This document shows positions 2,025 through 2,306 of a stretch of 31,239 nt of DNA, one piece after another. The notes under the pieces were generated by a model. It was not told the origin of the DNA. It did no database searches and saw nothing but the letters and a program-made list of their open reading frames with translations. The DNA is taken from IMG/VR virus record IMGVR_UViG_2671180673_000015; one strand, 5' to 3'. The DNA comes from a virus. Taxonomy: Duplodnaviria > Heunggongvirae > Uroviricota > Caudoviricetes. Made by a program: the position numbers and the translations under genes. How positions within the stretch are numbered: position 1 is the first letter of the stretch; each line of letters begins with the position of its first letter.

Positions 2025-2306
2025 TCACATCCAGCCACGAAGTTGATGCTCAACAGCAACCACGTATTCATCGAATAATGACGATATTTGCGAATCATTA
2101 ATGATGCGCACGTTTACAAAATATCCGTCTTCCTTAACACATACCGGTTCGCCATCTTCAGTCAGTTCTCCGGTTTCTTTGTACACGTTACCTATCACGT
2201 CAATAAGAATATCATCCTGCATCGACTCGTCATCATAATAGCCAGTACTCTCCATAAAGGCCGAAAAGTCGGCCCTGTCGGCAAATTTGAGTGTTAAATC
2301 TTTCAT
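2025..2306 (-). CDS. Hypothetical acidic 93-aa protein, translationally coupled to stf (TAATG overlap); possible fibre adaptor or assembly factor
   Basis: Start ATG 2306-2304 overlaps the stf stop TAA (2306-2308) by 1 nt; ends 9 nt before the next gene's RBS. No family recognised. Confidence 0.6.
   Translation of the reverse strand: MKDLTLKFADRADFSAFMESTGYYDDESMQDDILIDVIGNVYKETGELTEDGEPVCVKEDGYFVNVRIINDSQISSLFDEYVVAVEHQLRGWM

Follow-up and report, generated by a model that had tools for sequence, protein, structure and literature searches.

A small acidic protein linked to a side tail fibre module across tailed phages: a widespread, putative accessory family

Introduction

The stretch of phage DNA analysed here (the window; 31,239 nucleotides, IMG/VR record IMGVR_UViG_2671180673_000015, Caudoviricetes) carries a small open reading frame between two tail fibre genes. 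What does such a gene do there, and to which of its two neighbours does it belong? A first-pass annotation made from the sequence alone called it the least explained gene in the module and offered three roles for its product, namely adaptor, fibre-specific chaperone or inhibitor. We agree with the first statement in that the small ORF is a member of an uncharacterised family. Elsewhere the gene is annotated as 'hypothetical' or, arbitrarily, as 'tail fiber protein', and no function is assigned to the protein in PHROG, in the other databases or in the literature that we searched. No paper in that literature names or tests it, queries for phrog_1361, VOG7707 and FIG00639828 returned no matches, and neither the Eligo paper on lambda Stf engineering nor the lambda recombination paper mentions it.

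Results

The small ORF lies at positions 2025..2306 of the minus strand, with its ATG at 2306-2304 and its TGA at 2027-2025, and encodes a protein that begins with MKDLTLKF and ends with LRGWM. The first-pass annotation had correctly described an acidic product of 93 aa flanked by two fibre genes, to which we add the minus strand. Both of the junctions that it reported can be read in the sequence. In the TAATG at 2304-2308, the stop codon of the upstream gene, stf (TAA, 2308-2306), and the ATG of the small ORF have one base in common. At the other end, the sequence past the small-ORF stop, TGAGGAAGAAAAATG, places the ribosome-binding site of the second fibre gene (GAGGAAG, 2020..2026, minus strand) over the TGA, and the ATG of the second fibre follows at 2015. 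In addition, we read directly from the sequence a Shine-Dalgarno motif for the small ORF (GGGGGAG, 2315..2321, minus strand), which precedes the ATG by 8 nt and forms part of the last stf codons (Gly-Glu); the minus-strand sequence there is ...CAGGTGGGGGAGTCAATCTAATGAAAG. An overlapping stop and start combined with a separate Shine-Dalgarno motif is the arrangement expected for translational coupling to stf, as first proposed, and is consistent with a coupled, proportionate synthesis of the small protein with Stf.

The protein has a mass of 10.7 kDa and a pI of 4.05 (21 D+E vs 7 K+R), and this acidity is kept throughout the family (pI 4.05-4.65). An AF2 model (pLDDT 81) predicts a small alpha+beta fold of the order beta-alpha-alpha-beta4-alpha in a single compact domain, and no significant neighbour was found in the PDB either by sequence or by predicted fold. 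The window contains 40 isolated N bases (e.g. 1174, 5666, 7186, 7197, 10056-10236 and 18831-19467), none of them in the small ORF. They translate into X residues in J, the second fibre and other structural genes, and their clustering in few genes suggests masked polymorphic or low-quality positions.

The small protein had been described as having no recognisable family. This holds for Pfam and NCBIfam, in which no family matched at E<=1, but not for PHROG. A full-length match was obtained to PHROG 1361 ('unknown function'; E 6.1e-46), with residues 1-93 aligned to positions 1-92 of a 92-position profile. The protein is therefore not family-less; PHROG 18574 is a weaker match (E 5.7e-9). Homologues were found in 181 phage records. 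A word-indexed search with the protein returned 227 protein clusters, and an exhaustive HMMER scan of 1.84 billion cluster representatives gave 51 matches only, so that the family is real but narrow. Three motifs, the N-terminal MKDLxLKF, D-x-IG and GYFVN-x-R, are kept down to about 30% identity, and a C-terminal P-x-R-x-W-A/S motif is usually kept as well; among the lineages without a second fibre, it is missing from the rV5-like variant of 110 aa only. Three giant proteins (P0159, P0160 and P0162; E ~1e-5, 5-8 stretches each) were rejected as spurious homologues; they are Ig-like/CarboxypepD_reg repeat proteins in which only a beta-hairpin matches the small protein.

The small ORF is a real, conserved gene rather than a chance reading frame. 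It is full-length (91-93 or 110 aa) and intact in 139 of 141 related loci, the exceptions being one truncated copy and one cut by a contig end. It is also under purifying selection, with a dN/dS of 0.25 among 42 window-type alleles and of 0.31 among 12 phage-21-type alleles. A lack of conservation in related prophages, which the first-pass annotation had named as what would tell against its view, was not what we found; the ORF is strongly conserved there.

The upstream gene, stf (2306..4687, minus strand), encodes a lambda-type side tail fibre of 793 aa (phage_tail_N, E 6e-67); further upstream lie lom (4746..5345) and J (5413..8892). In the N-terminal part of Stf (3596..4687, minus strand), the attachment domain (phage_tail_N) is followed by a shaft of Ala-rich repeats; this part is specific to the lineage and is not carried along with the small ORF. 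Owing to its tandem repeats rich in Ala, Ser and Thr, the shaft region (window about 3550-4400, both strands) also contains long ORFs that are spurious, some in other frames and some on the plus strand, for instance 3553..4392 (279 aa) and 3768..4316 (182 aa). The remaining part of Stf is a C-terminal module of about 430 aa (2306..3595, minus strand), composed of a beta-sandwich domain like that of the RcGTA head-spike fibre and a further all-beta region ending ...RHLFGHVRNFRIWHKALTDAQVGESI. Within this module, we found the NCBIfam 'phage head spike fiber' domain (NF048003, E 2.5e-13) and an alignment to the RcGTA head-spike fibre Rcc01080 (PDB 6tb9, E 1.4e-8). An AF2 model of the C-terminal 429 aa has a mean pLDDT of 52, with confidence confined to model residues ~86-255. 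Because of this low value, its Foldseek neighbours (fibre chains of Pseudomonas phages Pa193/E217, laminin LG pairs and CBM4) are only a weak hint that the module may resemble lectin-type beta-sandwiches.

The downstream gene (975..2015, minus strand) encodes a second fibre of 346 aa with a C-terminal Peptidase_S74 intramolecular chaperone domain (CIMCD; PF13884, E 4.8e-14, residues 227-278). This is the sole such match in the cassette, as neither the small ORF nor Stf matches PF13884. The N-terminal ~32 aa of the second fibre (MATSTVIPDDIKTLKSDVSKLK...) are conserved, its body is variable and the gene as a whole is an optional third element of the cassette. In the lineage of the window (about 80 loci), the gene that follows the small ORF is always a second fibre with the N-terminus MATSTVIPxDIxxLK..., and at least two unrelated bodies (346 aa vs 227-241 aa) occur in otherwise near-identical prophages. 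These alternative bodies concern loci L029, L030 and L070; in L017, L036 and L076, the gene is split by a frameshift. The same N-terminal peptide heads the second fibre of phages tinuso, VogelGryff, BRET, FFH1, AKFV33 and IrisVonRoten. In the phage collection, it was detected in 38 records, a lower bound because the query was short (40 aa), whereas the small ORF occurs in 181. In Salmonella phage VSe12 (L003, 5280-7018), the second fibre is without the N-terminal peptide (118-nt gap, two ORFs) and its ORF starts at the equivalent of residue ~45, next to an intact small ORF; this second fibre is probably a decaying gene.

To which neighbour, then, does the small ORF belong? In every locus examined, it starts between 4 nt inside and 10 nt past the stop codon of a fibre gene that carries the Stf module, and none was found away from this module in about 150 loci. 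What the partner fibres have in common with the window Stf is the C-terminal ~430 aa alone (44-99% identity). Their N-termini are unrelated and include the lambda-type phage_tail_N, T5 pb1-type, P2 H-type (PF12571), rV5-type and T1-type. The linkage was seen in lambdoid prophages and phage HannyBb, in another lambdoid type, in phage 21 and its relatives (about 50 prophage loci), in P2-like prophages, in T5-like phages (VSe12, FFH1, AKFV33 and IrisVonRoten), in T1-like phages (Warwickvirus tinuso), in Seurat- and Nonag-like phages (Seuratvirus VogelGryff and Nonagvirus BRET), in Dhillon-like phages, in rV5-like phages (naswa and rV5_ev146) and in two metagenomic contigs in which the small protein is only ~30% identical. 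The small ORF and the Stf module have thus been co-transferred, into virulent and temperate phages alike.

On the other hand, the second fibre is dispensable to this association. The small gene is intact with no second fibre next to it in phage 21 and about 50 related prophages (stf-small ORF-membrane protein), in P2-like prophages (I-H'-small ORF-membrane protein), in a further lambdoid type (J-fibre-small ORF-prophage end; L155-157) and in rV5-like phages. The MKDLxLKF motif is the same in these lineages and the constraint is similar (dN/dS 0.31 vs 0.25). The first-pass annotation had tied the small ORF to CIMCD-type fibres, a link that does not survive, as the CIMCD fibre is missing from the phage-21-type, P2-like and rV5-like loci in which the small gene persists. 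Judged from these sequence comparisons, the small ORF has its constant partner in the C-terminal module of the upstream fibre and not in the CIMCD fibre downstream.

In the phage collection, the Stf tail occurs in 205 records and the small ORF, as noted, in 181. Three of the extra Stf-tail records were checked; two carry a divergent member of 88 aa and one an IS-disrupted stf plus small ORF. In Escherichia phage D2 (L145, OM475427.1, 3836-6486), three CDSs annotated as 'mobile element protein' lie past a truncated stf, and the small ORF and the membrane-protein gene 3' of the insertion are still intact. In another locus (L076, IMG/VR UViG_2537561979_000005), the upstream ORF joins an unrelated N-terminus to Stf residues ~527-793, which looks like a large internal prophage deletion or a chimeric assembly.

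Comparison of E. coli prophages revealed where conservation is concentrated. Identity remains at 92-100% in the small protein but drops to 14-50% in Stf residues 440-750, and the body of the second fibre is exchanged. The conserved island is thus made up of the small ORF together with the Stf C-terminus (last ~45 aa) and the second-fibre N-terminus (first ~32 aa). Part of the conservation of the Stf tail is due to the Shine-Dalgarno motif of the small ORF, which is embedded in stf. A near-identical stf-to-second-fibre region was found in 375 of 5426 E. coli genomes.

The loci also bear on the fibre chaperones that are already known. The window has no intact tfa but contains the remnant of a truncated classical tail-fibre assembly gene at 500..628 (minus strand; Caudo_TAP, E 1.3e-17), which spans 42 codons, covers profile positions 95-130 of 131, is without its N-terminus and has a stop codon before it. 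PGAP annotates the same remnant in a near-identical genome, and a tfa remnant lies at most 2.5 kb downstream of the cassette in 37 of the 59 lambdoid loci with enough flank. In P2-like prophages, H is chimeric, with a P2 N-terminus joined to the Stf module; the small ORF comes next and only a 70-aa Caudo_TAP fragment of gene G (Tfa) is present further downstream. This suggests that the cassette displaced an ancestral stf-tfa pair. The small protein itself is not a classical Tfa, in agreement with the first-pass annotation, which had also named homology to a known Tfa as a finding that would count against it. No match to PF02413 (Caudo_TAP) was obtained at E<=1, with the 42-aa remnant as a positive control (E 1.3e-17), the protein has 93 aa vs ~190 aa and its predicted fold differs.

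An exchange with the second known chaperone type was found in rV5-like phages. In rV5 itself, a Peptidase_S74 CIMCD forms the C-terminus of gp41 (1272 aa), and gp40 is the very next gene (Table S3, PMC3606486). In naswa and rV5_ev146, the corresponding allele is of 1479 aa and terminates with the Stf module, and the small ORF separates it from the gp40 homologue. Fibres appear to come with Tfa, with CIMCD or with the small protein, the last only where the Stf module is present. In terms of gene content, the small ORF is mutually exclusive with both known fibre-chaperone solutions.

Downstream of the second fibre, the window encodes a membrane protein of 97-102 aa (639..947, minus strand; PHROG 1443, unknown function), annotated with two TMDs in phage 21. 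Its gene lies 3' of the cassette in lambdoid and P2-like prophages and is restricted to temperate phages, being absent from the loci of all virulent phages examined. The lambdoid copies are 96-98% identical, the P2-like copy is clearly more diverged and the protein has no PADLOC match; it looks like a lysogenic-conversion or exclusion moron. A region of E. coli SB0258h1 that is 99.4% identical places the module at the ompT/appY end of a lambdoid prophage at the DLP12 site, and PGAP lists the small ORF of this genome as 'hypothetical protein'. Elsewhere in the window, we found a prophage-borne general porin gene (27165-28307, plus strand; Porin_1, E 2e-151), like nmpC in DLP12, and a transposase ORF (29900-31072, plus strand) with rve, Mu-transpos_C_2 and HTH_23 domains, which indicates that an IS element interrupts the early/late regulatory region.

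Discussion

In this study, we found that the small ORF between two fibre genes represents a widespread, uncharacterised family of fibre-accessory proteins, the mechanism of which is putative. Our preferred reading, to which we assign a probability of about 0.5, is that the small protein serves the Stf-module tip as a dedicated factor, either for assembly or as an accessory, analogous to Tfa but unrelated to it. The strict linkage to the module, the coupling arrangement, the purifying selection and the mutual exclusion with known chaperones are what lead us to this role. The small protein would be made from the same late transcript as Stf, with a gene arrangement fitting translational coupling, and would serve as an intermolecular factor in the assembly or folding of the fibre's C-terminal end, either nascent or freshly completed. 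The recurrence of this genetic linkage across loci suggests that the protein binds conserved parts of the module, by which folding, oligomerisation or stability may be promoted, the protein then either leaving the finished fibre or staying on it. Such a chaperone must recognise the conserved flanks only (the neck, residues 365-440, and/or the last ~45 aa), because Stf residues 440-750 diverge. This pattern of conserved flanks fits a structural joint equally well, and it is not obvious that a lectin-type beta-sandwich would need a chaperone. Of the three roles offered by the first-pass annotation, we thus favour a chaperone or accessory function over an adaptor, and find no support for an inhibitor.

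A structural adaptor is nevertheless the main, though less likely, alternative. The small protein would sit on the distal end of Stf and dock the MxTxTxIPxDIxxLK peptide of the CIMCD-bearing second fibre, giving rise to a two-segment or branched fibre. This model predicts what is seen wherever a second fibre exists, that is, its gene always comes next, 9-12 nt after the small ORF, and starts with the conserved peptide. Lambdoid, T1-like, Seurat/Nonag- and T5-like phages all conserve the first ~30 aa of the second fibre but differ in its body, and the conserved island of E. coli prophages consists of exactly the three pieces that such a joint would bring together. Moreover, Stf lacks any counterpart of the docking region (LtfA/phiEco32-gp14 type) described for phage DT57C, so that another docking surface is needed. 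The small protein is unlikely to be a detached version of the LtfA docking domain, a candidate that we rejected after hhalign against this region of LtfA (DT571/2) gave a probability of 0.4%. A second fibre attached to a proximal one has in fact been modelled in phage IrisVonRoten, with Gp24 placed on Gp22 and Gp23, the small protein, left undiscussed (PMC11990801).

We also compared pairwise identities in a mirror-tree analysis. The identity of the small protein tracks that of the second-fibre N-terminus as closely as that of the Stf tail (rho 0.76 vs 0.77), and the value falls to 0.40-0.57 for the Stf body. We do not use these correlations to discriminate between chaperone and adaptor, as the two flanks are equal and the analysis is confounded by physical adjacency. 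What weighs against an adaptor is the existence of at least four lineages (phage 21, P2-like, L155 and rV5-like) in which no adjacent second fibre is available for docking and yet the small gene remains intact, under the same constraint. The C-terminal motif is likewise kept in the phage-21-type and 88-aa lineages, whether the second fibre is present or not. An adaptor also leaves unexplained why the fibre alleles that bear a CIMCD are without the small gene. A broader version of this idea, in which the small protein is a permanent joint that offers a universal socket for interchangeable second fibres and perhaps also acts as a folding factor of the tip, strikes us as tentative. It would amount to a compact 'plug-and-play' branching connector common to siphoviruses and myoviruses.

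We consider it unlikely that the small protein is a stoichiometric component of the tip with a capping or regulatory role, masking or stabilising the lectin-like domain or setting the conformation of the fibre. A near-stoichiometric partner would be in keeping with the coupled gene arrangement and with the constant association with the Stf module, and the conserved negative charge might keep fibres off anionic LPS or off each other. However, nothing points specifically to capping or regulation, and the small protein is conserved while the receptor-binding part is hypervariable, which makes a contact with the specificity-determining surface improbable.

Still less credible is a role that has nothing to do with fibres, the gene merely hitch-hiking behind stf and encoding a moron, an inhibitor or anti-defence protein, or an acidic mimic of DNA. 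Small acidic phage proteins are often inhibitors, and the lack of any Pfam or NCBIfam match extends to the PADLOC models of anti-phage defence and counter-defence, of which no family matched the small protein at E<=1. Against this stand the absence of any copy away from the Stf module in ~150 loci, the movement of the ORF with the module into virulent and temperate phages, and its position inside the late structural operon, overlapping the stf stop. The membrane protein, which is the true moron of the cassette, shows a different distribution, confined to temperate phages. Finally, what is conserved between the two hypervariable regions of E. coli prophages could be mere DNA, a recombination 'linker' between exchangeable fibre modules with no protein function, but this is highly improbable given the dN/dS of 0.25-0.31, the frame intact in 139/141 loci, the protein and its motifs kept to ~30% identity where DNA similarity is gone, and the confident AF2 model.

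The module is widespread, being present in 181-205 phage records and several hundred E. coli genomes, and in phages as different as phage 21, IrisVonRoten, VogelGryff and the rV5-like phages. If the small protein is an obligatory helper or joint, it would add to Tfa and the intramolecular chaperone a third way of assembling fibres, one that is structurally new, and its gene would have to accompany Stf-module tips in any transplant. Fibre engineering fails when the cognate helper protein is omitted.

The closest functional parallel to a dedicated assembly factor is Tfa (lambda Tfa, P2 gpG, Mu gpU; PF02413). Like the small ORF, tfa lies directly downstream of a fibre gene and travels with the fibre C-terminus, and in P2-like and lambdoid prophages the small ORF occupies the very position of tfa, a truncated remnant of which is left. 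Unlike Tfa, the small protein has no sequence similarity to this family, is half the size (93 vs ~175-195 aa) and partners a lectin-like module rather than Tfa-dependent tips. Whereas Tfa combines a conserved N-terminal fibre-binding domain with a variable C-terminal domain, the small protein is predicted to form one compact domain of a different fold. The second known solution is the Peptidase_S74 chaperone (T5 pb1, K1F endosialidase), which resembles the small protein in being its alternative at allelic loci (rV5 gp41 vs naswa). Such an exclusion is expected for alternative solutions to the same assembly problem. In contrast to that chaperone, the small protein is a separate polypeptide with neither homology to it nor a protease motif, and the S74 domain of the window sits on the downstream fibre, not on Stf.

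As regards two-part fibres, LtfA and LtfB of DT57C are likewise a proximal fibre followed by a distal CIMCD fibre. However, the proximal LtfA itself carries a CIMCD and the phiEco32-gp14-like docking region, neither of which is present in Stf, and the gene numbering of DT57C leaves no ORF between the LtfA and LtfB genes. Thus, we rejected the branched LtfA/LtfB fibres as a model for the cassette, the architecture being different. In T4, gp57A is a small acidic general fibre chaperone needed for assembly, and gp35 and gp36 are small proteins that join fibre segments; both cases are functional analogies for our two leading models, and no homology to the small protein was detected for any of them in the libraries searched. 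Furthermore, gp57A is a helical coiled coil, unlike the predicted alpha+beta fold of the small protein, and, as a general chaperone, it differs from a gene strictly linked to one fibre module.

Members of the family have already been present in published phages. In AKFV33, ORF136 is a homologue of the small protein located between the fibre genes ltpA and ltpB, and the virion proteome of this phage covered four large gel bands only. The rV5 proteome is uninformative on the small protein, since rV5 carries the CIMCD allele of the fibre. For IrisVonRoten, the second BASEL paper (PMC11990801) gives the proximal fibre to which Gp24 is attached as Gp22 in the figure legend and as Gp23 in the text, and the role of Gp23 was apparently overlooked. 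Gp23 is a 92-aa homologue of the small protein, labelled 'tail fiber protein' in GenBank (MZ501075.1; L149, 4501-4779). Altogether, Gp22-Gp23-Gp24 of IrisVonRoten is the direct homologue of the stf-small ORF-second fibre cassette, in the same order of a proximal fibre and then a distal CIMCD fibre.
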